The position numbers were made by a program, and so were the translations under genes. A DNA stretch of 64,000 nucleotides from an uncultured Ignavibacteriales bacterium (GTDB lineage Bacteria; Bacteroidota; Ignavibacteria; Tepidaquicellales; OLB5). Below the pieces are notes generated by a model. It did no database searches, was not told the DNA's origin, and saw only the letters and a program-made list of their open reading frames with translations. Positions 3,244 through 60,740 of this stretch are shown here, piece by piece (within the stretch, counting starts at the first letter, position 1; every line of letters starts with the position of its first letter). The stretch lies in contig CAZMRG010000001.1 of the NCBI GenBank assembly GCA_964568655.1, forward strand, positions 2,815-66,814. Direction: 5' to 3'.

Positions 3244-3543
3244 CTACAAAAATATCATTTTCTGTTAGGTATTGCAATTCTTACAATAAAATTAATGGTT
3301 TTCTAATAATATTTGTTTATTTTGGTACTTAAATTAGCTACGAATCCCGTATATACGGTATTGTATGAGGTAACCGTTAACACTAATTTTGCTTCAAGAA
3401 TCACTATTGTTATTAAATGTTAAGAAAATAATGTGTATATTGAATCACGTAACCTATAATCCTTTCATTGCTTATGGTGGTCGTGTAAAGTTAGATTTGA
3501 AGTTCAAAGCGTTAATGTAATAAAAAAACAGAGTTTAAGACCT

Positions 3544-33707: not shown

Positions 33708-36700
33708 CTACTTTATTAGCACCATCTTCTTACTATCCACAAAAGTCCCGGCTTCTATCCTGTAGAAATATAAACCAGAGGCGTATGATGAACCGTTAAA
33801 GCTGAAATCATATGTGCCAGCCAATTTGTATTCGGTCTTAGAGAAAACTACTTTTCCAAGCAGATCATATACTTTAATAGAAACCAATCCATCTTTTGGC
33901 AGATCGTATTTGATCATTGTTTCAGGATTGAACGGATTTGGATAGTTCTGGTAAAGCTTAAATACCTTCGGAATGCTGATATTGTTTTGACCGGTTTTAA
34001 TGCTTGCTTTGCTTTGTATCCCCAAAACCATCATCATATCCGATGCAATTTTTTCTTTGAATTCCTTTTTTGTTGACGGATTGAACTTAACCGTCCGTGA
34101 TTGTAACTCGGCTTTATCATCTTTTGTATATTTTTCATTTTTACGAGCTTTGCCCTCATTATCCGATTCTTCTTTTTGTTTCTTTAGAAACACATCTTTA
34201 ACCAGTTTATGCGGATCCTTGTTTTGGAATTTTGCTTCTGGATATTCCAGCTTGGAAACTATATTTGGCGCGCCGCCTCCGCTGTTCATTAGCAATACAA
34301 CAGCCGCTCTATCCCAGCTCGCCGTTAGCCTTCTCAGCGGGTCGGGATTGTAATTCATTATATTTTCGTATCCCGCTATAGCTTCGGTGAACGCTCTTTG
34401 CTTTACAAGGCACATTAAATAATAATTGTATGCTTTTTCAACAAAGTTTGTTAAGTCCTGATAGTCGGATATTTTTTGAACAAGATATGTTTTTAACTGT
34501 CCGAATAATACCGTTGTGGTATTTTGGTTATTTGAAGTATCGGAAGCCTGATAGCATAAATATAATTCATCCAAAGCTGAGGCAAGATACTTACTTGTGT
34601 CGTATGTATTTATTAGTTGCACTGAATTACTTATAGCTTCTGAATAATCTTTTTGCATTTTCTGATGCAGGATAAGCGCATACAAAGTACGATCATTATT
34701 TACTGGAGGAGCTTTTGTAACGCTTGACTCACCTCCGCCTAAACCACCGTTTCCGGGCCCGGGAGTGACAGATATTGAATCATAAATGCCGCCGCCCATA
34801 TTGGTTACAGCATAACTGATTGGCGTGTTATCGCCTGTAGATGGACAGGTTTCGCTTGTTGGAGTATAGTTAACGCCTGCCAGATTACCTCCGCAATAGA
34901 TTTGGAATTGCGGTGGTGTAGTATTCCAATAGTTGTTTGCCGCGGCATAATATGGATTCATACTGCAAAGATTTGGCAGGTCGCCGCTTATGTGGCTATT
35001 CGTAGGTATATCGTAAATATAAAAGCAGTTTTTACCCTGGTCTGTGTACAAATTACTTCCTGATTCGAAATAAGCGCAGGTGTATGATTTTTGCGCGTCT
35101 TTATAATCCAGATATATTTTGTTGTAACCGCCGTACCAAGTAAATGTGCCGTCGCCGTTTAATACAGGGGCTAGCCGCGCCGTGGAATTTTCGACCATTG
35201 TTAAAGTATTGCCTGTAAGCGATTTTAAGCTATTATTGTAAAAATTAAGATTACAGCTTATAAGCTCCGCTGCCAAACTGTAATTATCATTCTGGAAATT
35301 ATTATTCTTGAAATCGCCGGCAATGTTGTAAGCCAATAAGCCTGTTATACCGCCTGAATTTGGCCCGTAGAAATTATTATAAGTAATATAGAAAGGCGTT
35401 ATGATTCCGGCATAGCAATCAAGCCTTATCTGCGCGCCTGTTCCGCCTTCGAAAGTGTTATAGTTTATATCCAGATGATAATTTTCAGGAAGCTCGCCAA
35501 GATCATTTGTTACCTCAAGCAGATCGCCAGTGAGATTGTAACAGTTAAATATATTGCTTAAAACATAAAGATTTGTACCGTTATCTATTGTTACTTTTCC
35601 ATCATTAAAAGTATTTCCCGATATGTTAATTTGACTGGTGTCGTGATATTTATCATTTGAAATATCAACGCAGGTTGCGGCTCCTGTGAATGTGCAATTT
35701 GATATTGAACAGGCGCCGCCATTTGTAAACTTTAAACCGTTCCATGAAGTACCGGTAAAAGTGCAGCCGTTGGCGTTCAAATATGCTCCATTAGTAAATT
35801 CAATTCCTGAATTCTGGTCAAATGAAATTGTGGTACCCGGATTAGCTTCCAGATAAGAATCCGGGCCATCAAATACAATTTTGCAATTTTGACCGAGATT
35901 AACTTGTGCCTGGTCATTAAGTATAATATGTCCGCCGCTATCAGGGCAGCCTATATTATTTGAATAATTATCTGAATAAGGACAGTTTATTCCTATATTG
36001 TATTTGCCATTTTCGCTGAGAGTGTATTGTAAACCGCGGGTTATGGCGTTGCAGTTATTTACAACAGCATTATCATGAATATATATTTCTGAATATTGCG
36101 AGCAAAGTATTTCAGAATGATAATCCCACAACATATGTGAATTCCCATATAATGAAATTGTGGCATGCGGCCATAAATTAATAACGCCGTTAGTACTGAC
36201 TTCGGAATGACAATTATTTTGAAATACAACGGAAGAACCCGATGCCGGATTCATAGATCCTTTAACGTTCAGGTTTGCATACGGTTCAATTAACAAAAAG
36301 GTTCCGAGACCGGAATTTGGCAGATCATAAGGATTAAAAGTCAACGTATGCCAATTAGGATAAGAGCCTATATTTAATGATGCGCCGGTTTGAGTACTTG
36401 GATCGCCCTCGATTATTATTGATGGCGGAGAATTTTCAATGTACGGTGCAGAAGTTGGAGTAGAAATATTTTTCTCAATTGTCAAATTTAAAGATAACAC
36501 TCCAAATTCTTCTCTTTGAAAAATGTGATTTTGGTTTAATATTCCACCACCTGGATTACAATCTTTTCTTGGATCTTGTGGTATTACTGTATAAGGATTA
36601 TTTATTTGTTGACCAGAATTGTATCTAAAATCACCGTAGGCTTTATTTCGCCAAAAGTTTGGATAAACTTGATGCCAAGATTCAATTTTTCTGTTTGAAG

Positions 36701-37283
36701 GTATGGGCACAAGACCAGACATATTGCCCCACATATATTGTAATTGCGGACTACCAACCCATACGAGTTGAATTACGATATCGCTTGCAAAACTATACTT
36801 TCCATAATCATCATCATATTCAATTGTGAAATAATCATCAGGAGGATAATTTATTGGGTCTGGGTCTGGATTTATATCAGAATACCAAATATCAAATCTG
36901 TATCGACCGAATCCAAGTACTGCCGAATTCCCAGGATTTGTCAATCCTCCAGCTCGGTCAAAATCCATTACGATATGATTTGATAGTCCGCTTGCGACAT
37001 GAAAATAATCTTGAGAAGAATTTCTACCATTAATGAAATCAATTTTATTTTGCCCCCCTTGATGTGTCTGTACCATATACAAATTGTATCCTCTAATTGG
37101 ATCGCTTTCGGTTGGATACCAATCCGCATTAAAAACCATACTGACCGGATAAACTTTAACGGTTATTGTCGTCCCAATTTGATTTGTAAAATCAATCTCC
37201 CACGGATTGGCAGTGGCGTAATTAATAAACAAAGCTATATTTAAAAACAAATAAATAGGTAAAAACAAGATTTTCTGATTCAT
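33708..37283 (-). CDS. Very large T9SS-secreted protein with right-handed parallel beta-helix repeats
   Basis: 1191 aa with a signal peptide. PbH1-like repeats are present (ISNCTFTGAATCVDISN; ISGNTFNDGKVTIDNGTN; INYNTFEGGTGAQIRLD; ITYNNFYGPNSGG...; KNNNFQNDNY...; NFYNNSL). A helical TPR-like region follows. The C-terminus is YQNYPNPFNPETMIKY...FVDSKKMVLIK. Confidence 0.8.
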   Translation of the reverse strand: MNQKILFLPIYLFLNIALFINYATANPWEIDFTNQIGTTITVKVYPVSMVFNADWYPTESDPIRGYNLYMVQTHQGGQNKIDFINGRNSSQDYFHVASGLSNHIVMDFDRAGGLTNPGNSAVLGFGRYRFDIWYSDINPDPDPINYPPDDYFTIEYDDDYGKYSFASDIVIQLVWVGSPQLQYMWGNMSGLVPIPSNRKIESWHQVYPNFWRNKAYGDFRYNSGQQINNPYTVIPQDPRKDCNPGGGILNQNHIFQREEFGVLSLNLTIEKNISTPTSAPYIENSPPSIIIEGDPSTQTGASLNIGSYPNWHTLTFNPYDLPNSGLGTFLLIEPYANLNVKGSMNPASGSSVVFQNNCHSEVSTNGVINLWPHATISLYGNSHMLWDYHSEILCSQYSEIYIHDNAVVNNCNAITRGLQYTLSENGKYNIGINCPYSDNYSNNIGCPDSGGHIILNDQAQVNLGQNCKIVFDGPDSYLEANPGTTISFDQNSGIEFTNGAYLNANGCTFTGTSWNGLKFTNGGACSISNCTFTGAATCVDISNDKYHDTSQINISGNTFNDGKVTIDNGTNLYVLSNIFNCYNLTGDLLEVTNDLGELPENYHLDINYNTFEGGTGAQIRLDCYAGIITPFYITYNNFYGPNSGGITGLLAYNIAGDFKNNNFQNDNYSLAAELISCNLNFYNNSLKSLTGNTLTMVENSTARLAPVLNGDGTFTWYGGYNKIYLDYKDAQKSYTCAYFESGSNLYTDQGKNCFYIYDIPTNSHISGDLPNLCSMNPYYAAANNYWNTTPPQFQIYCGGNLAGVNYTPTSETCPSTGDNTPISYAVTNMGGGIYDSISVTPGPGNGGLGGGESSVTKAPPVNNDRTLYALILHQKMQKDYSEAISNSVQLINTYDTSKYLASALDELYLCYQASDTSNNQNTTTVLFGQLKTYLVQKISDYQDLTNFVEKAYNYYLMCLVKQRAFTEAIAGYENIMNYNPDPLRRLTASWDRAAVVLLMNSGGGAPNIVSKLEYPEAKFQNKDPHKLVKDVFLKKQKEESDNEGKARKNEKYTKDDKAELQSRTVKFNPSTKKEFKEKIASDMMMVLGIQSKASIKTGQNNISIPKVFKLYQNYPNPFNPETMIKYDLPKDGLVSIKVYDLLGKVVFSKTEYKLAGTYDFSFNGSSYASGLYFYRIEAGTFVDSKKMVLIK

Positions 37284-39747: not shown

Positions 39748-41868
39748 CTATGCAATTCTTACAAGGTCCATAGAATCCTTATAATTCATAAGAAAATGTG
39801 CCCTGATATTCTTGTTTTCTTCAGCCCGCAGCTGTGAATCGTTATCGGCAAGCTTCATTGCAGATTTTCTTGCGCCTTCTATCAGCGGCATATCTTTTGA
39901 TATATCCGCAACGTTGAATTTCAGCTCGCCTGATTGCCTTGTGCCGAAAAACTCACCCGGCCCGCGTAGTTTCATATCTACTTCCGATATTTTAAAGCCG
40001 TCTGTAGTCTGTACAATAGTTTCCAATCTCTCTTTTGAGATATCTCCGCCGCCTTCTGCCATTAATATACAGTATGATTGCTCTGCGCCTCTGCCTACGC
40101 GTCCCCTCAGCTGGTGCAGCTGCGATAAGCCGAACCTTTGCGCCTCTTCAATTACCATTATTGTCGCATTCGGAATATCAATACCTACTTCGATTACGGT
40201 TGTTGTAACTAAAATATCCAGCTTCCGGTCTTTAAATTCTTCTATTGTCTGATCTATTTCATACCATGGCAGCCTTCCGTGTATAAGCCCAACTCTTAAA
40301 TCCTTAAATACATTCTTACTCAACAATTCGAAGTGTTGAACCGCGGACTTCAGATCAAGTTTTTCGGACTCTTCGATAATTGGATAAACTATATATGCCT
40401 GCCTGCCTTTTTTTATTTCATCGCGAATGAAATTATAAACTTTCAACCTGTCACTTTCAAATCTAAGCGCTGTTTTAATTGTTTTTCTGTTCTTAGGAAG
40501 TTCATCAATGACAGAAACATCAAGGTCGCCGTAAACTGTCAGCGAGAGCGTTCTGGGAATAGGCGTCGCCGTCATAACAAGCACATCGGGATTCAGCCCC
40601 TTCTCGCGCAGCTTAGCTCTTTGAACAACGCCAAACTTATGCTGTTCGTCTATTACCGCAAATCCAAGTTTTTTGAATGCAACCGTTTCCTGAATCAGAG
40701 CATGTGTGCCCACTACAACATTTGCCTGGCCTGATTTTATTTCGCCGAGTATCTCTTCCCTCAGTTTCTTTTTCTGGCCGCCAACAAGCAGCGCGGTCTT
40801 TAAACCAAGCCCGTTAAAGTATTGCTTAAGTACTTTATAATGCTGTTCCGCCAGGATTTCAGTCGGGCACATGAACGCCGCCTGGTAACCATTTTCAATT
40901 GCAATAAGCATCGCGAATATCGCGACAATAGTTTTACCGCTTCCAACATCGCCCTGCAGCAGCCTGTTCATCGGCTTTGTGGATTTCATATCCGCGCGGA
41001 TCTCTTTTATTACTTTCTTCTGAGCCCTGGTGAGCTCAAATCCAAGTAAATCTTTAAAAAGCTTTTCGAATTTTTCCCCGACCTTATCGAATGAAATACC
41101 TTTTTCTTCATTTTCTATGGTTTTTCTCCTGAGCGCCATTACGAGCTGAAGATAAAACAACTCTTCAAACGCCAGCGTCATCCTTGCTTTTTCTTTGTCT
41201 TCTAAAGTATGCGGATAATGTATTCTTAATATTGCGTTTTTATGCTCAAGCAGGTCGTTATCGGTTCTGATCTCTTCGGAAAGAACTTCATGCATCCTGC
41301 CGGAATAATTCTTCAGTGCATTAAAAACTATTTTGGTAAGCGTCAACGGCTTTACCCATGTTTTCTTTAACTCGCCTGATAATATGTAGAGTGGGATCAG
41401 CGGGTATTTTAAAAGCTCATTATCGCCGGCATCAAATTTCTTGTGGTCGCGCAGGTCGAACTGCACACCCTTTTCGAACATGTTGTAGTTTACTTTACCC
41501 CAGAACATATACCTATCGCCAACCTGGAACTGCCGCTCCCTGTAAAAGAAATTTCCCCATATAAGGCACTCAATTACACCTGAGTCATCTTTAACCATAA
41601 CCTTAAGCGGGTGATTTGGCCTTCTGGGAGCCTGCTTGTCTGTAATTTCCCCGGCGATAATCACGTTGCAATCGCGGTACTCACGCAGCCGGCTTATTTT
41701 TGTATTAATTAAATAGTCTCTTGGGTAAACAGTGAAGAGGTCGTCAATTCTCCCAATGCCGAGCGATTCAAATGCCAGTGCGCGTTTTGGCCCGACACCT
41801 TTAAGATACGATATTTCAGGAATATTTTCTTTAGTCAAAGCGATGATGATTAGTACAAATATAAACAT
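39748..41868 (-). CDS. recG: ATP-dependent DNA helicase RecG
   Basis: 706 aa with an N-terminal wedge/OB region. Motifs LTRAQKKVIKEI, LLQGDVGSGKT, IDEQHKFGV, MTATPIPRT and QLHQLRGRVGRG. Confidence 0.92.
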   Translation of the reverse strand: MFIFVLIIIALTKENIPEISYLKGVGPKRALAFESLGIGRIDDLFTVYPRDYLINTKISRLREYRDCNVIIAGEITDKQAPRRPNHPLKVMVKDDSGVIECLIWGNFFYRERQFQVGDRYMFWGKVNYNMFEKGVQFDLRDHKKFDAGDNELLKYPLIPLYILSGELKKTWVKPLTLTKIVFNALKNYSGRMHEVLSEEIRTDNDLLEHKNAILRIHYPHTLEDKEKARMTLAFEELFYLQLVMALRRKTIENEEKGISFDKVGEKFEKLFKDLLGFELTRAQKKVIKEIRADMKSTKPMNRLLQGDVGSGKTIVAIFAMLIAIENGYQAAFMCPTEILAEQHYKVLKQYFNGLGLKTALLVGGQKKKLREEILGEIKSGQANVVVGTHALIQETVAFKKLGFAVIDEQHKFGVVQRAKLREKGLNPDVLVMTATPIPRTLSLTVYGDLDVSVIDELPKNRKTIKTALRFESDRLKVYNFIRDEIKKGRQAYIVYPIIEESEKLDLKSAVQHFELLSKNVFKDLRVGLIHGRLPWYEIDQTIEEFKDRKLDILVTTTVIEVGIDIPNATIMVIEEAQRFGLSQLHQLRGRVGRGAEQSYCILMAEGGGDISKERLETIVQTTDGFKISEVDMKLRGPGEFFGTRQSGELKFNVADISKDMPLIEGARKSAMKLADNDSQLRAEENKNIRAHFLMNYKDSMDLVRIA

Positions 41869-41910
41869 TTAAGGAAACATCTTTGAGGAATTAAGGTAAA
41901 AAGAATATTA

Positions 41911-42268
41911 TCTCCCCCTAACAGGGGGAGGTAGGAGGGGGTCTTGAGTGAAATTAGGTAGTCTAATTTGACCACCCCTCATCCCCCTCCTTAATAAGGA
42001 GGGGATGAACAGCAAATATTCTCATGTTAGAAATAGGCAGTGAAAAAAATCGCCGTCTCCCCCTATCAGGGGGAGATACAGAGGGGGTGGCTGTACAGAG
42101 TTAAATTGGTTATGAATTGCACCTCCCCCTACCCCCTCCTGTCAGGAGGGGGTGATAATATATGAAAGTATGCCTTCACCCTTTTAATCTTTTCCATAAG
42201 ATTGTCTGTGCCTTTGGGGTGGTCAAGCCATTCAGAAGTCTCATTATCAGGAGGAGGTAGGAGGGGGT
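41911..42268. repeat. BIME-like array of five C5/G5-rich three-arm palindromic elements in alternating orientation
   Basis: R1 41911-41941: TCTCCCCCT-AAC-AGGGGGAG-GT-AGGAGGGGG. R2 41973-42006: CACCCCTC-AT-CCCCCTCC-TTAATAA-GGAGGGGAT. R3 42056-42090: TCTCCCCCT-ATC-AGGGGGAGA-TAC-AGAGGGGGTGG. R4 42122-42153: CCTCCCCCT-A-CCCCCTCCT-GTC-AGGAGGGGGT. R5 42246-42267: ATC-AGGAGGAG-GT-AGGAGGGGG, which lacks a left arm. Hairpin centres are spaced about 72-76 bp apart for R1-R4. Confidence 0.8.
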
Positions 42269-42353
42269 TGAACATTGGAACAGAATAACATCAGAAGACG
42301 TATATAATTTATTATGATTTCTGAATCGGATTAGTTTTAAATTATGGAAATAG

Positions 42354-42373
42354 ATTCCCGCCTTCGCGGGAAT
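42354..42373. repeat. 20-nt hairpin element ATTCCCGC-CTTC-GCGGGAAT (REP-like)
   Basis: A perfect 8-bp stem. The same element, with shared upstream TTAG/TAG, recurs at 49731-49769 interrupted by a 19-nt insertion. Confidence 0.75.
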
Positions 42374-42443
42374 GACAATCACAGATATATAGTTATAATA
42401 ACTAACATTGATTAGTAAAACATATCTCTATAACTTGTAAGCA

Positions 42444-43712
42444 ATGAAAACGATTTTTTTGTTTATTTTATGCATCTTTTTTGCCGCTAATGCTGTTTTT
42501 GCCCAGCAAAAACTCCTCATCCCGATGGATGTTAATTCACAAACCGACCATCTAAGAGCGTACGGAATCGCATACAGGCATCTGCTGCATGGCAAAGAAC
42601 TCGACTGGCTTCTGAACTACCGCGGAGGCTCGTTCATGTTTGACTATTCTCCGGAACTTGAAGCAGAGTGCAAAGATAAAGGCGTCAGCTCTGAAAATAT
42701 TTCCGGCACACAAGCCGCGCAAATATATGCCGAGGTACAGGATGAAAAAAATAATATGGATGTTGTAAGGCTTGAAAAAGTTGCTAAGATAGCGGTTTAC
42801 GTCCCCCCAAATACTCTGCCATGGGATGATGCGGTTCAGCTTGTGCTTGATTATACTGAAATACCATACGATAAACTCTGGGACGAAGAAGTTCTTGATG
42901 GCAAGTTAAAAGGATATGATTTTGTTCATCTTCATCATGAGGATTTTACCGGGCAATACGGGAAATTCTTCTCAGCGTTCGGCACCGCGCCGTGGTACCT
43001 TACGCAAAAGCAGACCAACGAAGACATGGCAAAGAAGATGGGTTATGCGAAAGTTTCCCAGCTTAAGCTTGCTGTTGTGAAGAAACTGCAGGAGTATGTT
43101 ACTAACGGTGGTTTTTTATTTACTATGTGCTCCGGCGCTACAACTCCAGATATGGCGCTGGCCGCACAATACACAGATGTATGCGAATCGATGTATGACG
43201 GCGACCCTGCAGACCCGAATGCAAATGACAAGCTTGATTACTCGGAATGTTTTGCATTCCAGGATTTTAAGTTTATGATGAATCCTTATGTTTACGAGTA
43301 TTCCGATCTGGATATCACCGATGAAGAACTGCTTAAAGGTCAGTTCAACGATTATTTTACCTTATTTGATTTTTCCGCTAAGGATGACCCTGTACCTTCT
43401 ATGTTAACGCAGGACCATACGTCTATGATAAAAGGATTCCTCGGGCAGGAATCAGGTTTCCATGAAAGATTTATTAAACCGGATATAACTATCCTTGCAA
43501 AAAATGACGGCACAGATTGGGTGAAATATATCCACGGTAATCTTGGCAGGGGAACGTTTACATTTTATGGCGGGCATGACCCGGAAGATTATCAGCATGC
43601 GGTAGGCGACCCCAAAACAGATCTAAGCTTATATAAGAACTCGCCCGGTTACAGGCTTATTCTGAATAATGTTCTGTTCCCCGCAGCCAAAAAGAAGAAA
43701 TTAAAAACTTAA
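42444..43712 (+). CDS. Conserved-looking secreted protein, function unknown
   Basis: 422 aa with signal peptide MKTIFLFILCIFFAANAVFAQ. Notable segments are LLIPMDVNSQTDHLRAYGIAYRHLL...WLLNYRGGSFMF and GGFLFTMCSGATTPDMALA. There is a basic tail KKKKLKT. I could not assign a family with confidence. Confidence 0.6.
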   Translation: MKTIFLFILCIFFAANAVFAQQKLLIPMDVNSQTDHLRAYGIAYRHLLHGKELDWLLNYRGGSFMFDYSPELEAECKDKGVSSENISGTQAAQIYAEVQDEKNNMDVVRLEKVAKIAVYVPPNTLPWDDAVQLVLDYTEIPYDKLWDEEVLDGKLKGYDFVHLHHEDFTGQYGKFFSAFGTAPWYLTQKQTNEDMAKKMGYAKVSQLKLAVVKKLQEYVTNGGFLFTMCSGATTPDMALAAQYTDVCESMYDGDPADPNANDKLDYSECFAFQDFKFMMNPYVYEYSDLDITDEELLKGQFNDYFTLFDFSAKDDPVPSMLTQDHTSMIKGFLGQESGFHERFIKPDITILAKNDGTDWVKYIHGNLGRGTFTFYGGHDPEDYQHAVGDPKTDLSLYKNSPGYRLILNNVLFPAAKKKKLKT

Positions 43713-43715
43713 GTT

Positions 43716-46538
43716 TCAATCGCGGTAACAAATACTTTTGAACGCGCAGAATCTGCAGTGTTCGACGTATTCGGTTTGAGTAAAGGGTATTTCGGCGTCA
43801 AACAATCTCGTCAACAATTCTTTTAACCCGGCCTCAAATTTATTTATCGTTTCGGTTGTAAGCTCACCTTCAGATATGTAACGAATTCCTTCGCCGATAT
43901 TTCTTAATGGATAAATTCCCGGCTGAACCGCTTTTTCAGGATGAGCGGCATTGTATAATAATGCGTAGAAATGCGTCTGGAAGTACTCTTTGTACTCCGG
44001 GTCTTCAAACATCAGGTTGAAATTGTTTTCATTTATTTTTCTTGACGTGACTCTGCCTGTTTTATAATCAATAATTCGCGTTTTGTTTTTTCTCTCATCC
44101 ACCCTGTCAATTCTTCCGTTGAGAATTAATTTTTCTTTTCTGCCGTTAACTTCAATTTCGATATCTCTTAAATATTGTTCCTCGAGTTCAATTACTTTAA
44201 AAGGGGAGTCAATTTCATCGTTTTCAAGTATCTTTTGGGCTAATTTTTGCATAATCCCTTTATAAAGCAGGTTTTTGCCCTGCAGTTCGCCTGCCAACTC
44301 TCTCGCTTTATCAGCTTCTTTAAAAGCCTCTTCCAGTATTGGTCCAAACTCATTATCCAATCGCTTATTCAACGCTGCGAAATCATCTTTGCTAATTATT
44401 TTCCCCGCATAGTCATTATACAAAACCTTCATAACTTCATGAAAAATTTTCCCGAATGTAGCGCCGCCGAAAAATTCTTCAATATCGTCTTCTTCTTTCA
44501 ACCGTGCAATTCTTTCAAGATAGAATTTTAGCGAACAGGAAATAAACGAGGTTAAAGATGTTGCTGAAAATTTCCCGATAGTTCTAAGCTTCTCTAATAT
44601 TTCGTTATCTTTTATTATCGTAATTTCTATCTTCTTTGTGGCATGCGCAGGAATATCCAATATTAATTCTTCGAAAGAAATGTTCCTGTTGTTTTTAGCG
44701 AGTTCGCTTTCCAGCTGCAGAATAAACCTGCTTTTCTCTCCGGCGGCAAAATCGCCCGGCTCAGTATTATAAAACAAAAATATGTTTTTTGCTTTTTGGA
44801 TCAGCCTGTAGAAGTAATAAGCTGAAATTGCATCTTCATCTTCAAACGTTGGCAGCCGGAATGCCTTTCTGAGATGGAAGGGGATAAAAGAACTATTGGT
44901 ATTTCCCTTCGGCATTATGCCTTCATTCATAGAAAGTATAAAAACATTGTCAAAATCAACCGAACGTGTTTCCAGCAATCCCATTATCTGCAGTCCTTTT
45001 AATGGTTCTCCCGAAAAGGGAATGCGCACATTTGTGAGAACTTCCGATAAAATTTTCCAGAATGTTTCTGTTTCAATTTCCTGCGGGTATTTTGAAATTA
45101 TATCCGATAAACGGTTTAGCTGGGTGAAAAAGATGAAAAAATATTCTTTGTCTAATTTCTGAGAACTTTCAAGTTTAGAACTGCAATAAGTGAGTATTTT
45201 CTCCAGATAATCTATCGTGCCTTTCACTGAATCAACATAAGTAAATAATGTTGAGTGCAATATTTCATTTTCTGAAGTCAACATGCCTGAAGGAACGTAT
45301 ATGATATTTCTTTCCCTGATACGGTCAACCAGTTCATTGGATATTTTCGGAGCCGCCGATTTGATATACGGATGCATTAATACTTCGGTTACATACTTAT
45401 GATAGAATACTGGGCTCGATTTCTTTCCTTTTTTGTTCTTCTGTAATTTTTTGAGCGCCTCTACAAAGCTGTAAATCGGCGTATCCTTTATTGGATAGCC
45501 CATGGTCACATTGAACGACCCTATTTCTTCCGGAATTGAATGCAGCAGGGGAATCAGCAGCCTCTCATCCGGCAAAACCACCGCTGTACTATCCGTTATT
45601 TCAGATGATGACTGGTTCAGTCTTTGTAACTCAGCGCCAAGCGCTTTTACCTGCCCTGATTGCAGCGGCGCGCCTATCACAGTAATTTTCTTCGCATCTT
45701 CTCCGCTAAGCGTGGAAACTATCCAATTTGGCTTTTTAATTTCCAGATTTCTGAATGCGTTTCTAAGGAATGAACCTGCTTCCTGTTTAGGGTCGTTCAC
45801 ATAGTATTTATCAGCATCCCAGTACGTTTCTGCCTTCCCCAGCCTCGTAAGCTCTCTGATGATACCTTCTTCTGCTTTGTTAAGCGCGTTAAAGCCGGCA
45901 AAAATAATTTTATCCCATTTAATATCAGTTTTATTTGTCCTGATGTTCACATAGATTTTTCTGTAAGCCATTCCCTCATACGCGATATTTTTTTCACTCA
46001 GCCTTTGCCGGAATTCTTTATAAACCAATCCCAGTATTTCCCATGTTTTCAGGAAATCTCTTTGGTTTTTAGACAGGTCCTGCGAAGAAAACGAGCGCCA
46101 GAATTTACGGAACTCGTCAAAATCGCCAAAAGTCATCTCAAAAGTTTCTTCAAGCTCGCGGGTCTCTTTTATAATGCGGAATATCTCATCGGGCGGAACA
46201 AGGTTTTTATCAATATCATCAAAATCATCCAGTATCATATTTCCCCAGGGATAAAAACTATCAAACGACTCTCCCGTGATATGCTTTTTGTAAACTTCAT
46301 ACAATTCGAATATAAGAATGATCTTGTCTTCGATTGCAAACGGCGATAGCCGGTTCACAAAATCCTTTATGCCAAGTATTTCAGGGGCCCATGCAGGCTT
46401 TTCCAGTTTAGATGAAAGGAATTTCTTGAAGAACAATCCTGCCCTGACGGATGGGAATACAATGCACAACTTGCTGAGTTCTGAGGCATGCCTTAAAAGA
46501 ACTTCTTCAGCTAATTTATCCAGGAAATGCTGCGTCAT
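43716..46538 (-). CDS. addB: AddB-like helicase-nuclease subunit (PD-(D/E)XK nuclease with Fe-S cysteines, degenerate ATPase)
   Basis: 940 aa with no Walker A at the N-terminus. The C-terminal nuclease is GRIDRVDERKNKTRIIDYKTGR. The four-Cys pattern is SFISCSLKFY ... CRFCAFKSIC (C...CxxCxxxxxC), as in the AddB iron-sulfur staple. It overlaps the addA-like gene by 4 bp. Confidence 0.7.
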   Translation of the reverse strand: MTQHFLDKLAEEVLLRHASELSKLCIVFPSVRAGLFFKKFLSSKLEKPAWAPEILGIKDFVNRLSPFAIEDKIILIFELYEVYKKHITGESFDSFYPWGNMILDDFDDIDKNLVPPDEIFRIIKETRELEETFEMTFGDFDEFRKFWRSFSSQDLSKNQRDFLKTWEILGLVYKEFRQRLSEKNIAYEGMAYRKIYVNIRTNKTDIKWDKIIFAGFNALNKAEEGIIRELTRLGKAETYWDADKYYVNDPKQEAGSFLRNAFRNLEIKKPNWIVSTLSGEDAKKITVIGAPLQSGQVKALGAELQRLNQSSSEITDSTAVVLPDERLLIPLLHSIPEEIGSFNVTMGYPIKDTPIYSFVEALKKLQKNKKGKKSSPVFYHKYVTEVLMHPYIKSAAPKISNELVDRIRERNIIYVPSGMLTSENEILHSTLFTYVDSVKGTIDYLEKILTYCSSKLESSQKLDKEYFFIFFTQLNRLSDIISKYPQEIETETFWKILSEVLTNVRIPFSGEPLKGLQIMGLLETRSVDFDNVFILSMNEGIMPKGNTNSSFIPFHLRKAFRLPTFEDEDAISAYYFYRLIQKAKNIFLFYNTEPGDFAAGEKSRFILQLESELAKNNRNISFEELILDIPAHATKKIEITIIKDNEILEKLRTIGKFSATSLTSFISCSLKFYLERIARLKEEDDIEEFFGGATFGKIFHEVMKVLYNDYAGKIISKDDFAALNKRLDNEFGPILEEAFKEADKARELAGELQGKNLLYKGIMQKLAQKILENDEIDSPFKVIELEEQYLRDIEIEVNGRKEKLILNGRIDRVDERKNKTRIIDYKTGRVTSRKINENNFNLMFEDPEYKEYFQTHFYALLYNAAHPEKAVQPGIYPLRNIGEGIRYISEGELTTETINKFEAGLKELLTRLFDAEIPFTQTEYVEHCRFCAFKSICYRD

Positions 46539-49500
46539 ATCTTCACCGCCTTCGCGGAAGAAACATAATAAATATATTTGTCAACTGACTCAAATCCTGC
46601 TTTAATCAATGCGTCGGCATATTCATTTACCTGCGATTCATGTTCTTTGAATTGAGCGCCTGTTTTGTAATCAATCACAATCGCTCTATTGTCATTTATC
46701 ATCACGCGGTCAGGACGGATCGTTTTACCTCCCGGTATCAAAATATCCGGCTCAGTTTTGATTTCCCATTTGCCTGAAAACCATTCTTTGACCTCATTGT
46801 TATTTACGATTTCAGTCAGCTCTTTAATGTATGAATCTCTATCGTTATCGCGGATCAATCCTTCGCTGATTAATTTATTGACAGCGTTTTCAACATCATT
46901 TAACACGATTATATTTGCCAGGGCTCTATGAATTAAAATCCCTCTCTCAATAGCGCTGTTCTTTGTTTGAATAACAACTTTATCCGAATAACCGGATGAT
47001 ATAGTTGAATCTAATTTGACGGAATTAATTTTTCCAATTGCGGTTTTTGATTTCTTCTTTTCTCTCCTGCCAAATTCAGCTCCTTCTGCCGGTAAACTTT
47101 CTTTTATTAATTTCGACGCATTAAAAGAATTACTGGCTATTTGAGGGCATATTACATAAAGTCTTTCAATTGCTCTCGTGAAAGCAACGTATAACAGATT
47201 CAGGTTATCTATGTTTGTCATGACAAACTCATCCTCATAATCTTTCCTGAAATAGCTGTTTTTCAGGTTGCTTACAGCTCTTACAAGGTAAGCGGATGAA
47301 CGGTTAAACGGCTCCTCGCCAGATGAAACCCAGATAAGATCGCGGCTGCCGCTTATGTTAAATTCCCAGTTTGCATATGGGATTACAACGGCGGGGGACT
47401 GAAGTCCCTTTGCCATGTGAATTGTCAATACCTTAATAGCATTTTCCTCTTCGGGAACATTAATTGAAATTTTTTCTTTGTTTTCTTCCCACCACGAAAT
47501 AAATGCAGTAATATCTGAATTCTCTTTCTTCACATACTCAAGTATAAGGTCCAGGAAACGCTGAAGGTACGCATCGGCCTTTGCATTCAACCCGAAAATG
47601 CGTACAAGGTTTTCAACCAACTCATACAAAGTTAAGTTGTTAAGCTTTGGGTTGATGCCGTTAGAATTCGGCAGCGCTGAGAAAAATTCTTTCGGAAGCT
47701 TTGATCCAAAAAGTAAACCGGAAGTTTTTTTATAATCTTCAAAAATATCCCTGTAATTATTAAAATCTTCTTTAATATAAACTAAATAATTGAAGAGTAT
47801 TTCTGTTTTCGCAATGTCATTTGAACTGTCCGAAATGTATTTCAGTAAGTTGATAAGCAATTTTACTCTGGGCGAATTTGTTATCAATAGAGAATCATTT
47901 GAAACCACTTTATATCCGCTGCCGGTTAACAACTCCGCGAGGTGCGATGCCTCGCTGTTCCTGCGTGTCAGTATCATTATATCTCTCAATTCGAATCCGT
48001 CATCAATAAGCTGGTTAACATAATTAAGCGTCAATTCATCAGATCTTTCATTAGCGCTTTTTTCGTTATCTTTTTCAGTTTCAATAAAATCAACTTTTAC
48101 ATATCCGCCTCTTTTATCTTCGCTTTGAGTTTGCGTAACTTCTTTATACGATTCTTCAATAAGCTCCGCATACTCTGCATTCTTTTCAGCAAGATGCTTA
48201 GATGCCGCAAGGAAAAAACTATTATTAAACTTTACAATCTCATTAAAGCTCCGCCAGTTGTCTTTTAAGTTTTCAACGCCTATCAATTCTTTAAACGGGG
48301 CCAGGTCCTCCTGTACTTTTTCCAGAAGCAGCTTCATGTTGCCGCTGCGCCAGCGGTAAACTGATTGCTTAACATCGCCGACTATCATAGAAAAATTACC
48401 TTCGCTAATTGAATTTGTTACCAGCGGCAATAGATTCATCCATTGGTAGTTCGAAGTATCCTGGAATTCATCTACCAGGTAGTTCTTAAAAACGTTCCCT
48501 ATTTTTTCGTAAATGAACGGACTTGGCTCGTTCGAGATTATTTGCTTTAAAATGATATTAGTATCAGATATAAGCAGCAGCTTGTTCTCATCGCGGTAAG
48601 CTTTGAGGCTTTCCAGCAGATCGTTAAATATTCCAAGTATATAAACTGTCTTTGTAAGCTCTTTGGCGGAGAAATATTTTTTGTGGTTCTGTTCGTAATT
48701 ATCGACCGCTTTAATCAGCAGGTCATAAAGCCCCTCATTTATTGCAGTGTGAAGATTGGGATGCGGGCTCTTTGTAAACCATTTTTGAGAATTGGAATAG
48801 GCATCAAGCACTCTAGTTGTTGGTTCATAGACTTTATTCCGGATTTTATTTAAAAGGTAGTTCATAAATCCGGATTTACCAAAAGGGAAATCTCCCATCG
48901 TAAGTCCGTATTTTTCCATGATATTATTTGCCGAAGCGCATATGGAATTCATCGTACCTTCAAATGAGTTTACAATTGCGAACATTATGGAAACAAACTC
49001 CAGCATTTTCCCGCGGCTATCGGCGAGGTCGTCGTTACTGTTTTCCTTCCTTTCCCAATACCGCTCTTTAAATATTTCAGCGGAAAGGTTTTTAACCTTA
49101 TGCTCAATTCTCCAGTCGCCGTCTTCATCAATATTGTAATAGACAAAGTTCTCAAGGTAATTTCTCAGTTTTTCATCTTCGCCGATACGGTCAAATATCT
49201 CATCAATTAATTTATCCAGAACTGTTTCCGGTTTCATTTCAATATCATAACCAAGCTGCAGCTTCAGCTCTCTTGCAAACGAGCGTATTACTTTATGGAA
49301 GAAGCTATCGATTGTTTGAACCGCAAAGAAAGAATATTTGTGAAGTATATTCGATAAAACATCCTGTGCAAGAGACGTGATGTTACCTTTGACGCCTTCA
49401 TTACTCAATATTTCCGCAAGGTTTGCGTCTTTGCCTTCGGCAAGTTCGCCGAGCTTTTCGATAACACGCCTTTTCATTTCTGCGGCGGCTTTGTTCGTAA

Positions 49501-49624
49501 AGGTAATAGCAAGCGTATGCCTGAATTCATCCGGCTTAGATAGCGCCAGCCTCAGATACTCTTTTACAAGCGTGTATGTCTTGCCCGAGCCCGCGGAAGA
49601 TTTATATATGAGGAAATTTTTCAA
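46535..49624 (-). CDS. addA: AddA-like UvrD/Rep-family helicase with C-terminal PD-(D/E)XK nuclease
   Basis: 1029 aa with a TTG start. Walker A is SSAGSGKTYTL and motif II is VDEFQDTSNYQW. It also carries GDVKQSVYRWR and TIHMAKGLQ. The C-terminus is IRPDRVMINDNRAIVIDYKTG. Confidence 0.75.
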   Translation of the reverse strand: MKNFLIYKSSAGSGKTYTLVKEYLRLALSKPDEFRHTLAITFTNKAAAEMKRRVIEKLGELAEGKDANLAEILSNEGVKGNITSLAQDVLSNILHKYSFFAVQTIDSFFHKVIRSFARELKLQLGYDIEMKPETVLDKLIDEIFDRIGEDEKLRNYLENFVYYNIDEDGDWRIEHKVKNLSAEIFKERYWERKENSNDDLADSRGKMLEFVSIMFAIVNSFEGTMNSICASANNIMEKYGLTMGDFPFGKSGFMNYLLNKIRNKVYEPTTRVLDAYSNSQKWFTKSPHPNLHTAINEGLYDLLIKAVDNYEQNHKKYFSAKELTKTVYILGIFNDLLESLKAYRDENKLLLISDTNIILKQIISNEPSPFIYEKIGNVFKNYLVDEFQDTSNYQWMNLLPLVTNSISEGNFSMIVGDVKQSVYRWRSGNMKLLLEKVQEDLAPFKELIGVENLKDNWRSFNEIVKFNNSFFLAASKHLAEKNAEYAELIEESYKEVTQTQSEDKRGGYVKVDFIETEKDNEKSANERSDELTLNYVNQLIDDGFELRDIMILTRRNSEASHLAELLTGSGYKVVSNDSLLITNSPRVKLLINLLKYISDSSNDIAKTEILFNYLVYIKEDFNNYRDIFEDYKKTSGLLFGSKLPKEFFSALPNSNGINPKLNNLTLYELVENLVRIFGLNAKADAYLQRFLDLILEYVKKENSDITAFISWWEENKEKISINVPEEENAIKVLTIHMAKGLQSPAVVIPYANWEFNISGSRDLIWVSSGEEPFNRSSAYLVRAVSNLKNSYFRKDYEDEFVMTNIDNLNLLYVAFTRAIERLYVICPQIASNSFNASKLIKESLPAEGAEFGRREKKKSKTAIGKINSVKLDSTISSGYSDKVVIQTKNSAIERGILIHRALANIIVLNDVENAVNKLISEGLIRDNDRDSYIKELTEIVNNNEVKEWFSGKWEIKTEPDILIPGGKTIRPDRVMINDNRAIVIDYKTGAQFKEHESQVNEYADALIKAGFESVDKYIYYVSSAKAVKI

Positions 49625-59657: not shown

Positions 59658-59692
59658 GCGGGGGAACCGCCTGATATTCAGCGGCCCCCTGC
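59658..59692 (-). terminator. GC-rich hairpin terminator after the lipoprotein gene
   Basis: GCGGGGGAACCGCCTGATATTCAGCGGCCCCCTGC forms two stacked stems. On the minus strand it is followed by TTAAATTATTTTC. Confidence 0.5.
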
Positions 59693-59705: not shown

Positions 59706-60158
59706 TTATTTTACGAGAACAACCAATGAGGTTTTGCTGGTTGCATCTGCATAACCCATTGTAAAGTCGACTTCTTTGCCGCCTTTTTTATAAACCATTA
59801 CGCCCCCTTTATCTGTCATCATCATATCATTTGATTTGTCTGCGTCATATCCGGCTTTCTTCATTTCATCTTTATAGAAATCAGCAATCGGTTTTAACTT
59901 ATCGCTTATTTCATAAGTAGCTGTTGAGCCCTGGGGCGTCTTGGCTGAAGCCAGAAGCTTCGCATCCTTGTAGGTTGGTAAATCTGACGGCCAGTCTGCC
60001 GGCAGCTTGTTTGTTGATACGTCAACGTCTTTTGTTTTAACGTTTACGTCTGTTCCCTCTTTGTTAGTTGTTACGTCTACCTTACTATCGTCTTTTTTAC
60101 CGCAGGAGCTAAGCCCTATGACGAATAATAATAGAACAGCTAATGTTAGATGTTTCAT
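59706..60158 (-). CDS. Lipoprotein, unknown function
   Basis: 150 aa with signal plus lipobox VIGLSSCGKKDD. A K/D/T-rich linker precedes a globular C-terminal domain. Confidence 0.65.
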   Translation of the reverse strand: MKHLTLAVLLLFVIGLSSCGKKDDSKVDVTTNKEGTDVNVKTKDVDVSTNKLPADWPSDLPTYKDAKLLASAKTPQGSTATYEISDKLKPIADFYKDEMKKAGYDADKSNDMMMTDKGGVMVYKKGGKEVDFTMGYADATSKTSLVVLVK

Positions 60159-60282: not shown

Positions 60283-60339
60283 CCCTCCGCCCCGCGTTAA
60301 GCGGGGGAAGAGGGCATATTATTCTGGAGAAATAATATG
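60283..60339. repeat. Two adjacent hairpins: a C/G-rich REP-like element and an AT palindrome
   Basis: 60283-60314 is CCCTCCGCCCCGC-GTTAA-GCGGGGGAAGAGGG (6-bp plus 5-bp stems). 60315-60339 is CATATTATT-CTGGAGA-AATAATATG (9-bp stem). Both lie directly downstream of the stop at 60348. There is no U-run on the minus strand. Confidence 0.55.
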
Positions 60340-60347
60340 TTTAAAAA

Positions 60348-60740
60348 CTATTTGGTTAAAACTATTTTTTTAACTTTTGTATAATCGCCTGTCTGTATCT
60401 TATAATAATATGTTCCTGATGAGAGATTCGCGCCGTCAATATCTGTTTCATACGTTCCTGCCTGCTGGTATTCATTCACAATAGTTTTTACTTCTCTTGC
60501 TAATATATCATAAACTGTTATTCTGACCCCCGTAGATTTAGCTATTGTGTAACTGATCTTTGCCGGTGAAACTTTTGGATTATCTGCTATGCTGTATCCT
60601 GATGAAACTTCGTTTGTAATTGCGCTGAGAGAATCTTTGCCGCCTTCCGTATTCTTAATTGTAACATCCTGTGAGAAGGATTTTGGAGCCGCTATCAGCG
60701 ATATTAAAAGAACCGGTATTGCGATCAGGTATAATTTCAT
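60348..60740 (-). CDS. Mini-protein consisting of a signal peptide, a short linker and a T9SS-type C-terminal domain
   Basis: 130 aa. MKLYLIAIPVLLISLIAAPKSFSQ is followed by about 35 aa, then KISYTIAKSTGVRITVYDILAREVKTIVNEYQQAGTYETDIDGANLSSGTYYYKIQTGDYTKVKKIVLTK (CTD beta-sandwich pattern, without the NYPNPFNP lead-in). Confidence 0.6.
   Translation of the reverse strand: MKLYLIAIPVLLISLIAAPKSFSQDVTIKNTEGGKDSLSAITNEVSSGYSIADNPKVSPAKISYTIAKSTGVRITVYDILAREVKTIVNEYQQAGTYETDIDGANLSSGTYYYKIQTGDYTKVKKIVLTK

Follow-up and report, generated by a model that had tools for sequence, protein, structure and literature searches.

We found that the gap between recG and the divergently transcribed gene of a 422-amino-acid (aa) protein, in a 64,000-nucleotide stretch of DNA from an uncultured Ignavibacteriales bacterium (hereafter the window), carries an array of short palindromic elements. 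Each complete element has the anatomy of an intrastrand triplex motif in the formal sense, with pyrimidine arm, loop, purine arm, turn and reverse-Hoogsteen arm in succession on one strand. Judged by their arms, the elements are a new sequence family within the known class of BoxC, PIT and TM_ECO. The array is lineage-specific, and elements of the same build flank genes of the DUF559 family in other genomes. Taken as a whole, we consider it likely that these are selfish, non-autonomous triplex-motif repeats, lineage-specific and linked to DUF559, whose spread or maintenance may depend on this nuclease.

The array is made up of two ~95-bp inverted doublets and a remnant (positions are those of the window):

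41911-41942, plus strand: R1, complete triplex motif in C-G-G order; pyrimidine arm TCTCCCCCT, loop AAC, purine arm AGGGGGAGG, turn TA, reverse-Hoogsteen arm GGAGGGGGT; 0 mismatches
41970-42004, minus strand: R2, complete triplex motif (C-C-G on the plus strand); pyrimidine arm CCCCTCCTT, loop ATT, purine arm AAGGAGGGG, turn GATGA, reverse-Hoogsteen arm GGGGTGGTC
41911-42004: doublet 1, formed by R1 (C-G-G), a 27-bp spacer and R2 (C-C-G); the geometry of a DUF559 cassette without the gene
42056-42088, plus strand: R3, complete triplex motif; pyrimidine arm TCTCCCCCT, loop ATC, purine arm AGGGGGAGA, turn TAC, reverse-Hoogsteen arm AGAGGGGGT; 0 mismatches
42121-42152, minus strand: R4, complete triplex motif; pyrimidine arm CCCCCTCCT, loop GAC, purine arm AGGAGGGGG, turn TA, reverse-Hoogsteen arm GGGGGAGGT; 0 mismatches
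42056-42152: doublet 2, formed by R3 (C-G-G), a 32-bp spacer and R4 (C-C-G)
42216-42226, plus strand: GGGGTGGTCAA, exact inverted copy of the R2 outer arm and its flank (41968-41978), 11/11 complementary; probably the remnant of a further element beside R5
42245-42268, plus strand: R5, truncated; purine arm and mirror arm (TATC AGGAGGAGGT AGGAGGGGGT), no C arm upstream
~41900-42320: lineage-specific extra DNA with the array; boundaries approximate

A sequence-only reading of this DNA had described four complete elements and one 5'-truncated element in alternating orientation, with hairpin centres about 72-76 bp apart, in a divergent 5' region. All of this was confirmed. The detector described below finds R1-R4, on strands that alternate + - + - (and + for R5), and R5 retains two G arms, its C arm missing. 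Hairpin centres near 41921, 41994, 42066 and 42142 give spacings of 73, 72 and 76 bp, and the gene coordinates reproduce the 575-bp gap between recG (start 41868) and the 422-aa gene (start 42444). Complete copies measure 32-35 nt, with 3-nt loops and turns of 2-5 nt; R2 has one mismatch, and A is replaced by T at two mirrored positions. The two doublets align end to end, spacer included (GAGTnAAATTnGnTA...AATT), and the repeat families D1, D4 and D6 of the gap are spaced at 145-149 bp, R5 belonging to D1. In R1, R4 and R5 the junction between the two G arms is the tetranucleotide GTAG. Each element is predicted to fold as a hairpin, and the single-strand DNA fold of the region has z = -4.4 (ViennaRNA; triplexes are outside its model).

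The detector looks for three consecutive arms: a pyrimidine arm, a complementary arm made only of purines and a third arm mirroring the purine arm. A loop of 1-8 nt separates the first two and a turn of 0-6 nt the last two; arms are 7-12 nt long, with at most one mismatch per pairing. It finds exactly four motifs in the 64 kb, all in the recG/422-aa gap and all with 9-nt arms, and it recovers TM_ECO #9 of Holder et al. (2015, PMC4666352) at exactly the published coordinates. The plain pattern CCCCCT-N1-9-AGGGGG occurs three times in the window, only in this gap, against 0.01 expected from shuffles. Chance low-complexity runs of G and C, or an assembly artefact, have nothing more in their favour than the simple base composition of the arms, and we regard them as already refuted: shuffles expect 0.01-0.05 motifs where 3-4 are observed, and the same 32-nt cores are present in other metagenome-assembled genomes (MAGs) and in isolate genomes. 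Moreover, among population contigs from ten samples the gap is identical in eight, independently assembled from different samples, and differs by 3 single-nucleotide polymorphisms in the ninth; the tenth (L009) is bounded at 42122, within R4, and thus covers only part of the gap. All gap-spanning contigs carry the array.

Triplex motifs of class II, with pyrimidine (Y), purine (R) and reverse-Hoogsteen (RH) arms in the order Y-R-RH, were defined by Holder et al. (2015, PMC4666352), with TM_ECO/BoxC as CCCTCNCCC-N3-6-GGGNGAGGG-N3-GGGNGAGGG; as far as the citations in that paper go, BoxC (Bachellier, 1990s) and PIT (Hoyne et al. 2000) are named as this class. The same authors report frequent inverted doublets and raised local variability near the motifs and, by circular dichroism (CD) and nuclear magnetic resonance (NMR), folding of the isolated TM_ECO single strand as a triplex in vitro. 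Class II/III arms are 6-15 nt long and Watson-Crick complementary with at most one mismatch, and the loop that joins them has 1-6 nt; in R1-R4 the arms measure 9 nt and the loop 3 nt, with 0-1 mismatch. The third arm, of the same length, mirrored and reached over 1-6 nt, has 0 mismatches in R1, R3 and R4 and one in R2. As is further asked of this class, the motifs are above chance (4 against 0-1 in 20 block shuffles of the window) and all intergenic. Their arms, TCTCCCCCT/AGGGGGAGG and CCCCCTCCT/AGGAGGGGG, depart from the strict BoxC/TM_ECO consensus. A literature search with the arm sequences returned only papers on eukaryotic G-rich promoters.

For the third arm we compiled statistics from loci picked without reference to motif sequence and unrelated to each other. 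This arm fits only a mirror of the second arm in 110 cases and only a direct copy in 4. Opposite an internal A (GGAGG context) it carries A in 39 cases, T in 29, C in 5 and G in 1, that is A or T in 68/74; in the viral set the counts are A 5, T 14 and G 1 (A or T in 19/20). A*A-T and T*A-T triads call for A or T at this position, and not for G. Mirror symmetry is useless for Watson-Crick pairing or for binding of a dimeric protein; it is the rule of an antiparallel third strand lying on a purine strand. The third arm had previously been taken as a partner in two mutually exclusive hairpins. This idea fails on the mirror counts and is incompatible with T in the third arm, since T is unable to pair with the T of the C arm and yet forms a T*A-T triad. 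A triplex fold of this kind may be adopted by these elements in the cell.

According to another part of the sequence-only reading, the array has the architecture of bacterial interspersed mosaic elements (BIMEs), built of repetitive extragenic palindromic (REP) sequences. On this account it would be mobilised by a REP-associated tyrosine transposase (RAYT) encoded elsewhere, the third arm serving the alternative hairpins. Orientation does alternate as in BIMEs, inverted pairs prevail in other genomes too (55 vs 16), and GTAG is present between G arms. REPs carry a GTAG-type tetranucleotide 5' of the stem of an imperfect palindrome; here it is found on the 3' side of the hairpin. The third arm is a mirror of the second, not a copy, and tolerates T where an alternative hairpin needs A. 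In BIMEs the alternating copies are separated by conserved linker motifs; the spacers of the two window doublets resemble each other but are not conserved at other loci. An E. coli RayT seed, a single query of limited sensitivity, found no homologue in the window and one weak match in 2.68 Mb of element-bearing loci, and the Pfam lists of neighbouring genes contain no Y1 transposase. For the DNA in hand this account is refuted, and we give it very little weight in general: the motif is the three-arm mirror motif of the BoxC/PIT/TM_ECO class and the associated gene encodes DUF559. The earlier remark that the sequence family is unrelated to enterobacterial REPs held good.

The nearest relatives share the recG/422-aa gene pair. 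In two of them (L011 and L012, 422-aa protein 90% identical) the same gap measures 152 bp, and in a third (L013, 86%) 200 bp, in all cases without a C5/G5 hairpin; in a fourth (L015, 86%) a 220-aa gene stands between recG and the 422-aa gene, and the element is absent from both gaps flanking it. Only the ~120 bp nearest the 422-aa gene, including the promoter-like site, aligns with relatives. Because relatives lack the array and only this promoter-proximal part aligns, the array is extra DNA of this lineage, ~400 bp long, which stands outside the conserved regulatory core, on the upstream side of a conserved promoter. No target-site duplication was found at the array boundaries in the window, where the flanks are too diverged from L011 for exact boundaries. 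The array behaves like a selfish repeat, with no sign of a function for recG or the 422-aa gene, and the earlier description of it as a cluster of structured interspersed repeats is thereby upheld, the closest relatives having no element in their 152-200-bp gap.

These relatives also bear on the view that the elements serve the host, as operators or structured leaders for recG or the 422-aa gene or as selected pause sites for replication or recombination. The divergent promoter position would suit such a role, as would a similar pair in another divergent gap (L183), the resemblance of AGGAGG and CCTCCT in the arms to Shine-Dalgarno and anti-Shine-Dalgarno sequences, and the local instability with which Holder et al. 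(2015, PMC4666352) associate motifs of this kind. Nevertheless, relatives with 86-90% identical flanking proteins keep the gene pair and the promoter block without the array, cores of the same sequence turn up at unrelated loci and across unrelated phyla, and the presence of both orientations is unfavourable to a role at the RNA level. Rfam gave nothing at gathering score in the window; under permissive settings the gap produced no more than noise below threshold, such as sX13 (27 bits, cut-off 50). Earlier work, to the extent that Holder et al. (2015, PMC4666352) cite it, found no promoter or terminator activity of PIT elements. We therefore judge a host role quite improbable.

Next, we examined the distribution of the elements. 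We scanned 185,579 species genomes with the pattern AGGRGGRGGTAGGRGGRGGT, allowing 16 purine combinations, and viral contigs with the pattern C5-loop-G5-spacer-G5; all results of both scans hold among the matches listed. Matches in genomes come from Patescibacteria, Ignavibacteria, Cyanobacteria, Bacteroidota, Proteobacteria (up to 72% G+C), Acidobacteriota, Nitrospinota and others. They use almost only three mirror-symmetric combinations (AGGAGGGGGT-AGGGGGAGGT, AGGGGGAGGT-AGGAGGGGGT and AGGGGGGGGT-AGGGGGGGGT), and a complementary C arm precedes the first G arm in each. Copies beyond this locus, for which the sequence-only reading had proposed a search, thus exist in other MAGs, in isolates and in many phyla. 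Inverted neighbours outnumber others there as well (55 vs 16 pairs within 150 bp), so alternation is a family trait and not peculiar to the window. In the Ignavibacteria MAG CAWFKW01 (L167, L183) cores are identical to R1 and R4 over 32 nt: the R1 core equals copies in L167, while R4 matches L183 at 32/32 nt and is paired there with an R3-like copy in the divergent gap mentioned above.

Some copies are more elaborate. Four-arm palindromes, for example ACCTCCCCCT-ttaat-CCCCCTCCT-loop-AGGAGGGGGT-AGGGGGAGGT, occur in Chitinophagales, Ignavibacteria and Bacteroidota (L225, L207, L184, L217, L201) and can be read as a triplex motif on either strand; we counted 15 overlapping '-+' pairs. In other elements (L268, L278, L352 ~1522-1570) a small extra hairpin, such as GGAGGGGTGGCGCTTTAGCGCCGGGGTGG, lies within the first loop or separates the third arm from the second. 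Such elements escape the detector, and the DUF559 association is, if anything, under-counted.

This association appeared at L167, where an array with R1-identical cores brackets a 130-aa open reading frame (ORF) between dinB and lexA. The ORF is a DUF559 protein (PF04480; E 2e-29, 101.9 bits against a cut-off of 20.6). To avoid circularity, further DUF559 loci were fetched by protein pattern alone, the metagenome set from a 4-sequence alignment. Three-arm C/G elements flank the gene at 5/6 viral loci, and a formal motif lies within 300 bp at 62 of the 80 metagenome loci. Close to the gene motifs number 2.57 per kb, in the rest of the flanks 0.14 per kb, so that the enrichment is 18-fold, and after clustering at 60% identity 40/47 clusters are flanked. 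The geometry is fixed too. The nearest upstream motif is '+' (C-G-G) in 43 cases vs 3 and ends 0-50 bp before the protein match, and the nearest downstream motif is '-' in 39 vs 2; it either overlaps the C-terminus, often with the stop codon, or lies no more than 25 bp from it. The cassette layout is a C-G-G motif, the DUF559 gene and a C-C-G motif, and the window doublets share this layout without the gene. No mobility functions were ever found near these motifs by Holder et al. (2015, PMC4666352). We met no paper linking a DUF559 nuclease to BoxC or triplex repeats in the literature searched, most subscription journals lying outside that search.

DUF559 matches PDB 3hrl ('endonuclease-like protein', E 1.4e-14), and its AlphaFold2 model (pLDDT 84.9) matches 3hrl, the catalytic domain of the homing endonuclease I-Bth0305I (3r3p) and Vsr (1vsr). 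Invariant residues are E, D, G, H and D (E-x-D-G-x-x-H...D), and weak PHROG matches point to homing and HNH endonuclease families. Its role as a nuclease appears well founded by this modelled fold; that it would act catalytically on the elements is suggested by their juxtaposition. PADLOC gave only weak matches to methyl-directed restriction nuclease domains and no defence-system assignment.

The 64-kb window itself, with ~40% G+C, has no DUF559 gene. However, a 135-aa DUF559 protein (PF04480; P0121) is encoded on contigs from five of the window locus's ENA samples and from the same JGI sample series. Its gene lies between lexA and dinB and is flanked by TCTCCCCCTAACAGGGGGAGGTAGGAGGGGGT, which is R1, and by an R3-like copy, 31/32 identical, over its stop codon (L352 2081-2113); this copy shares with R3 the unusual GATACAG junction. 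A DUF559 cassette between lexA and a dinB-type (IMS) polymerase gene is found in two related Ignavibacteria genomes (L351 9033-11512, L352 733-3618, L167 3158-6105), a position that suggests possible SOS control of the nuclease. E. coli rayT is likewise a neighbour of dinB, at ~2.8 kb (L361), probably by coincidence. Contig ends were considered as a sign of repeat-induced assembly breaks and rejected: L009 alone ends in an element, and the short P0121 contigs do not.

E. coli K-12 offers an independent view of the same association. In the 20 kb around its DUF559 gene, ycjD, the sole motif is TM_ECO #9 (1351204-1351239), ~165 bp past the ycjD stop; the chance of a BoxC copy so close to ycjD is ~0.004, as estimated from 23 copies in 4.64 Mb. 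The stop codon itself lies inside a truncated type-B BoxC-like hairpin (CCCCCTCGCTCTTTCAGGGAGAGGG), and a ~50-bp piece of the ycjD 3' end is present a second time in the interval that separates ycjD from the BoxC copy (L264 11322-11370 and 11429-11478). The gene is present in 3347-3377 of 5426 complete E. coli genomes, namely those of phylogroups A, B1 and C, and elsewhere the eef operon takes its place (PMC12817139). The fabI-sapF gap contains either ycjD or the eefRABCD efflux operon; one enterotoxigenic (ETEC) strain has IS1 inside this locus and two DUF559 annotations. In the comparison of copy numbers that follows, each strain stands under the phylogroup to which we take it to belong. TM_ECO copies number 13-30 in A/B1/C strains, 12-15 in 042 and UMN026, 11 in O157, 6-7 in IAI39 and SMS-3-5 and 1-2 in B2 strains (Holder Tables S1/S7, PMC4666352). 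This trend is consistent with dependence on the nuclease, though confounded by phylogeny. The B2 strain JJ2434 lacks a doublet that K-12 has in the hrpB-mrcB gap and is ~102 bp shorter there, from right after the hrpB stop; this filled/empty pair shows no clear target duplication.

The same data can be read the other way round, with DUF559 as a free-standing homing-type endonuclease gene that invades empty inverted doublets, while the repeats spread otherwise (by replication slippage, gene conversion or another enzyme). The gene sits exactly between the C-G-G and C-C-G motifs, doublets with this layout but no gene are present in the window, in other genomes and in E. coli, and both the fold and the weak PHROG matches recall homing endonucleases. 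On the other hand, the spacers of empty doublets have no similarity to the motif-gene intervals, most sampled loci have one DUF559 gene, and K-12 has a single annotated ycjD despite five doublets. Invasion would also leave unexplained why ycjD strains have ~10x more copies than B2 strains. We consider this reading unlikely, although it is the one alternative that deserves real weight. Two related ideas were dropped. That doublets are internally deleted cassettes finds no similarity between their spacers and DUF559 flanks, and a swap of types A and B between cassette ends (as in R1/R4 and in E. coli type A and type B) was seen in 5 cases vs 6 of the same type, out of 23, which equals the between-locus background and is not significant.

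Our favoured reading of the elements as nuclease-dependent selfish repeats would work as follows. On one DNA strand, the first two arms would pair into a hairpin, and the third arm would lie antiparallel in its major groove, forming G*G-C and A/T*A-T triads (purine motif, class II). The DUF559 nuclease may then act on the folded single strand, or on the doublet, during replication or repair, and this action would promote copying or retention of the non-autonomous repeats, a relation that would resemble that between REPs or REPINs and the RAYT transposase. We hold enzymatic dependence of the repeats on the nuclease to be a fair question rather than an expectation, its chances lying somewhat below even. 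The broadest version of the idea we put forward equally tentatively. In it DUF559 proteins, YcjD included, would be dedicated partners of BoxC/PIT-type triplex repeats across bacterial phyla and in some viral contigs, a Vsr/EDxHD nuclease reading the single-stranded fold of hairpin plus third strand. They would thereby form a second REP/RAYT-like system, and the window array would have been seeded from the lexA-DUF559-dinB cassette of the same organism.

Several observations weigh against these proposals. Holder et al. (2015, PMC4666352) saw no triplex in duplex DNA or by in vivo dimethyl sulphate (DMS) footprinting, and the reported inactivity of PIT elements as promoters or terminators (see above) belongs here too. 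Among the genome matches listed, ~94% of copies have no DUF559 gene within 8 kb, and the link between DUF559 and the repeats is, at the level of the sequences compared, positional only. The motifs detected at the P0121 locus are all '-', which is not the canonical layout, and the placing of P0121 and the window in one genome is inferred from shared samples and similar G+C, no contig being shared. O157 keeps 11 TM_ECO copies without ycjD, and the E. coli contrast in copy number stems from very few independent lineages. Finally, similarity between loci is confined to the 32-36-nt cores, spacers are not conserved and no target-site duplication was found.

The array is surrounded by the following features:

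39748-41868, minus strand: recG, with RecG_wedge, DEAD, Helicase_C and RecG_dom3_C domains
42129-42275, minus strand: 48-aa ORF called in metagenome annotations, both ends inside element arms (MFNPLLPPP...SPPPDRRG); most likely spurious
42355-42372 (family repeat to 42374), plus strand: TTCCCGCCTTCGCGGGAA, 18-nt hairpin outside the array, of the family CCCGC-N4-GCGGGAATGAC
42372-42399, plus strand: sigma-70-like promoter candidate of the 422-aa gene, ATGACA-16-TATAAT (11/12), downstream of the array
42444-43712, plus strand: 422-aa gene, without a Pfam match

A separate hairpin near 42354 had been noted in the sequence-only reading. It exists and is not part of the array, but it measures 18 nt instead of 20 and begins at 42355. 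Its family, CCCGC-N4-GCGGGAATGAC, recurs at seven further unrelated loci (L351 3917-3936, L057, L172, L174, L190, L234, L287) from viral, Patescibacteria, Gammaproteobacteria and other sources, where ~0.001 matches are expected by chance in ~2.7 Mb; the L351 copy is a second locus from the window's samples. This looks like a second palindromic repeat family that crosses phyla. The 3' end of the window copy provides the -35-like ATGACA of the promoter candidate, and L013 has a partial copy of the palindrome (GCGGGAATGACAG) at the same place. Two hairpins at 59658-59692 and 60283-60314, formerly taken as related to the array, lack a third arm and go undetected by the three-arm detector. They are located immediately 3' of ORFs on the minus strand (59706-60158 and 60348-60740, respectively), the former hairpin being followed by a T-rich run on that strand, and both look like ordinary terminators.

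The TAGTTATAATAAnTAAC block of the 422-aa gene promoter is kept in relatives without the array. A 68-aa ORF overlapping the 48-aa ORF has no Pfam match. The annotated start of recG may be ~10 codons too far upstream (window 41840-41868 vs L011 9849-9880): recG of L011 is 696 aa long, and the opening codons of the 706-aa ORF of the window align with the TACAAATATAA block, which in L011 is intergenic. If the start is revised, the true gap may be ~30 bp longer. Adjoining the 422-aa gene (43716-49624, minus strand) is an AddAB-like pair of genes, for a PD-(D/E)XK nuclease of 940 aa and a UvrD-like helicase of 1029 aa; together with recG, repair and recombination genes thus surround the array, and nothing indicates more than coincidence. 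Homologues of the 422-aa protein are labelled Ignavibacteria, and genes near the array carry Por_Secre_tail domains. One of them, a 1191-aa gene of type IX secretion system (T9SS) cargo (33708-37283, minus strand), is polymorphic in the population: in some contigs (L002-L004) a 1008-aa and a 143-aa gene replace it, which explains their >2000 mismatches to the window.

For the window array the message is modest, namely selfish extra DNA rather than a regulatory device of recG. BoxC and PIT elements have been catalogued since the 1990s without a known origin, mode of spread or partner protein, and DUF559 is a concrete candidate partner. DUF559 is a very large family and E. coli ycjD is uncharacterised; the link gives YcjD a candidate function. 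The association, strong and fixed in its geometry, extends from Ignavibacteria and candidate-phyla bacteria to E. coli, and it brings both questions within reach of ordinary genetics and biochemistry in K-12. The findings also bear on motifs that mark unstable loci, on spurious 'PPLxKGG'-type ORFs called over the arms and on a possible biological reader of single-stranded triplexes.

Among known systems, BoxC/PIT/TM_ECO elements are the closest. Like the window elements, they consist of three consecutive ~9-nt blocks on one strand (C-rich, complementary G-rich, mirror G-rich; class II, the other strand reading as class III C-C-G), tolerate T opposite A in the third arm, and are intergenic and multi-copy, with frequent ~100-bp inverted doublets and a presence that varies between close relatives. 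By our analysis they also have a DUF559 gene nearby. The window family differs in its arms (CTCCCCCT/AGGGGGAG and CCCCCTCCT/AGGAGGGGG, not CCCTCNCCC/GGGNGAGGG), in a shorter turn (2-3 nt in 3/4 elements), in its phylum (Ignavibacteria) and in having 4-5 copies at one locus instead of singles or pairs; triplex folding was measured for TM_ECO only.

REP/BIME/REPIN sequences with their RAYTs are likewise short, structured and intergenic, with alternating clusters, inverted doublets, one associated gene flanked by inverted copies and most copies solitary. In contrast to them, the repeats here have three arms with a mirror rule and no conserved BIME linker motifs, and their putative partner has a predicted nuclease domain of PD-(D/E)xK/Vsr fold, not an HUH/Y1 transposase domain. 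DUF559 shares the 3r3p and 1vsr folds and the invariant acidic and His residues with EDxHD homing endonucleases (I-Bth0305I) and Vsr, whereas its members are single-domain proteins of ~110-135 aa, free-standing (not in introns or inteins) and repeat-flanked. Miniature inverted-repeat transposable elements (MITEs: Correia, ERIC, RUP) resemble the ~95-bp doublets in their inverted ends and presence/absence polymorphism. Unlike MITEs, the doublets have no duplication at either the window or the E. coli filled/empty site, their interiors are not conserved between loci, and the conserved unit is the 32-36-nt motif. With H-DNA mirror repeats, finally, the window elements have in common homopurine/homopyrimidine mirror symmetry and reverse-Hoogsteen triads, but their three triplex strands are consecutive on one strand, joined to a Watson-Crick hairpin, and folding needs single-stranded DNA rather than a supercoiled duplex.

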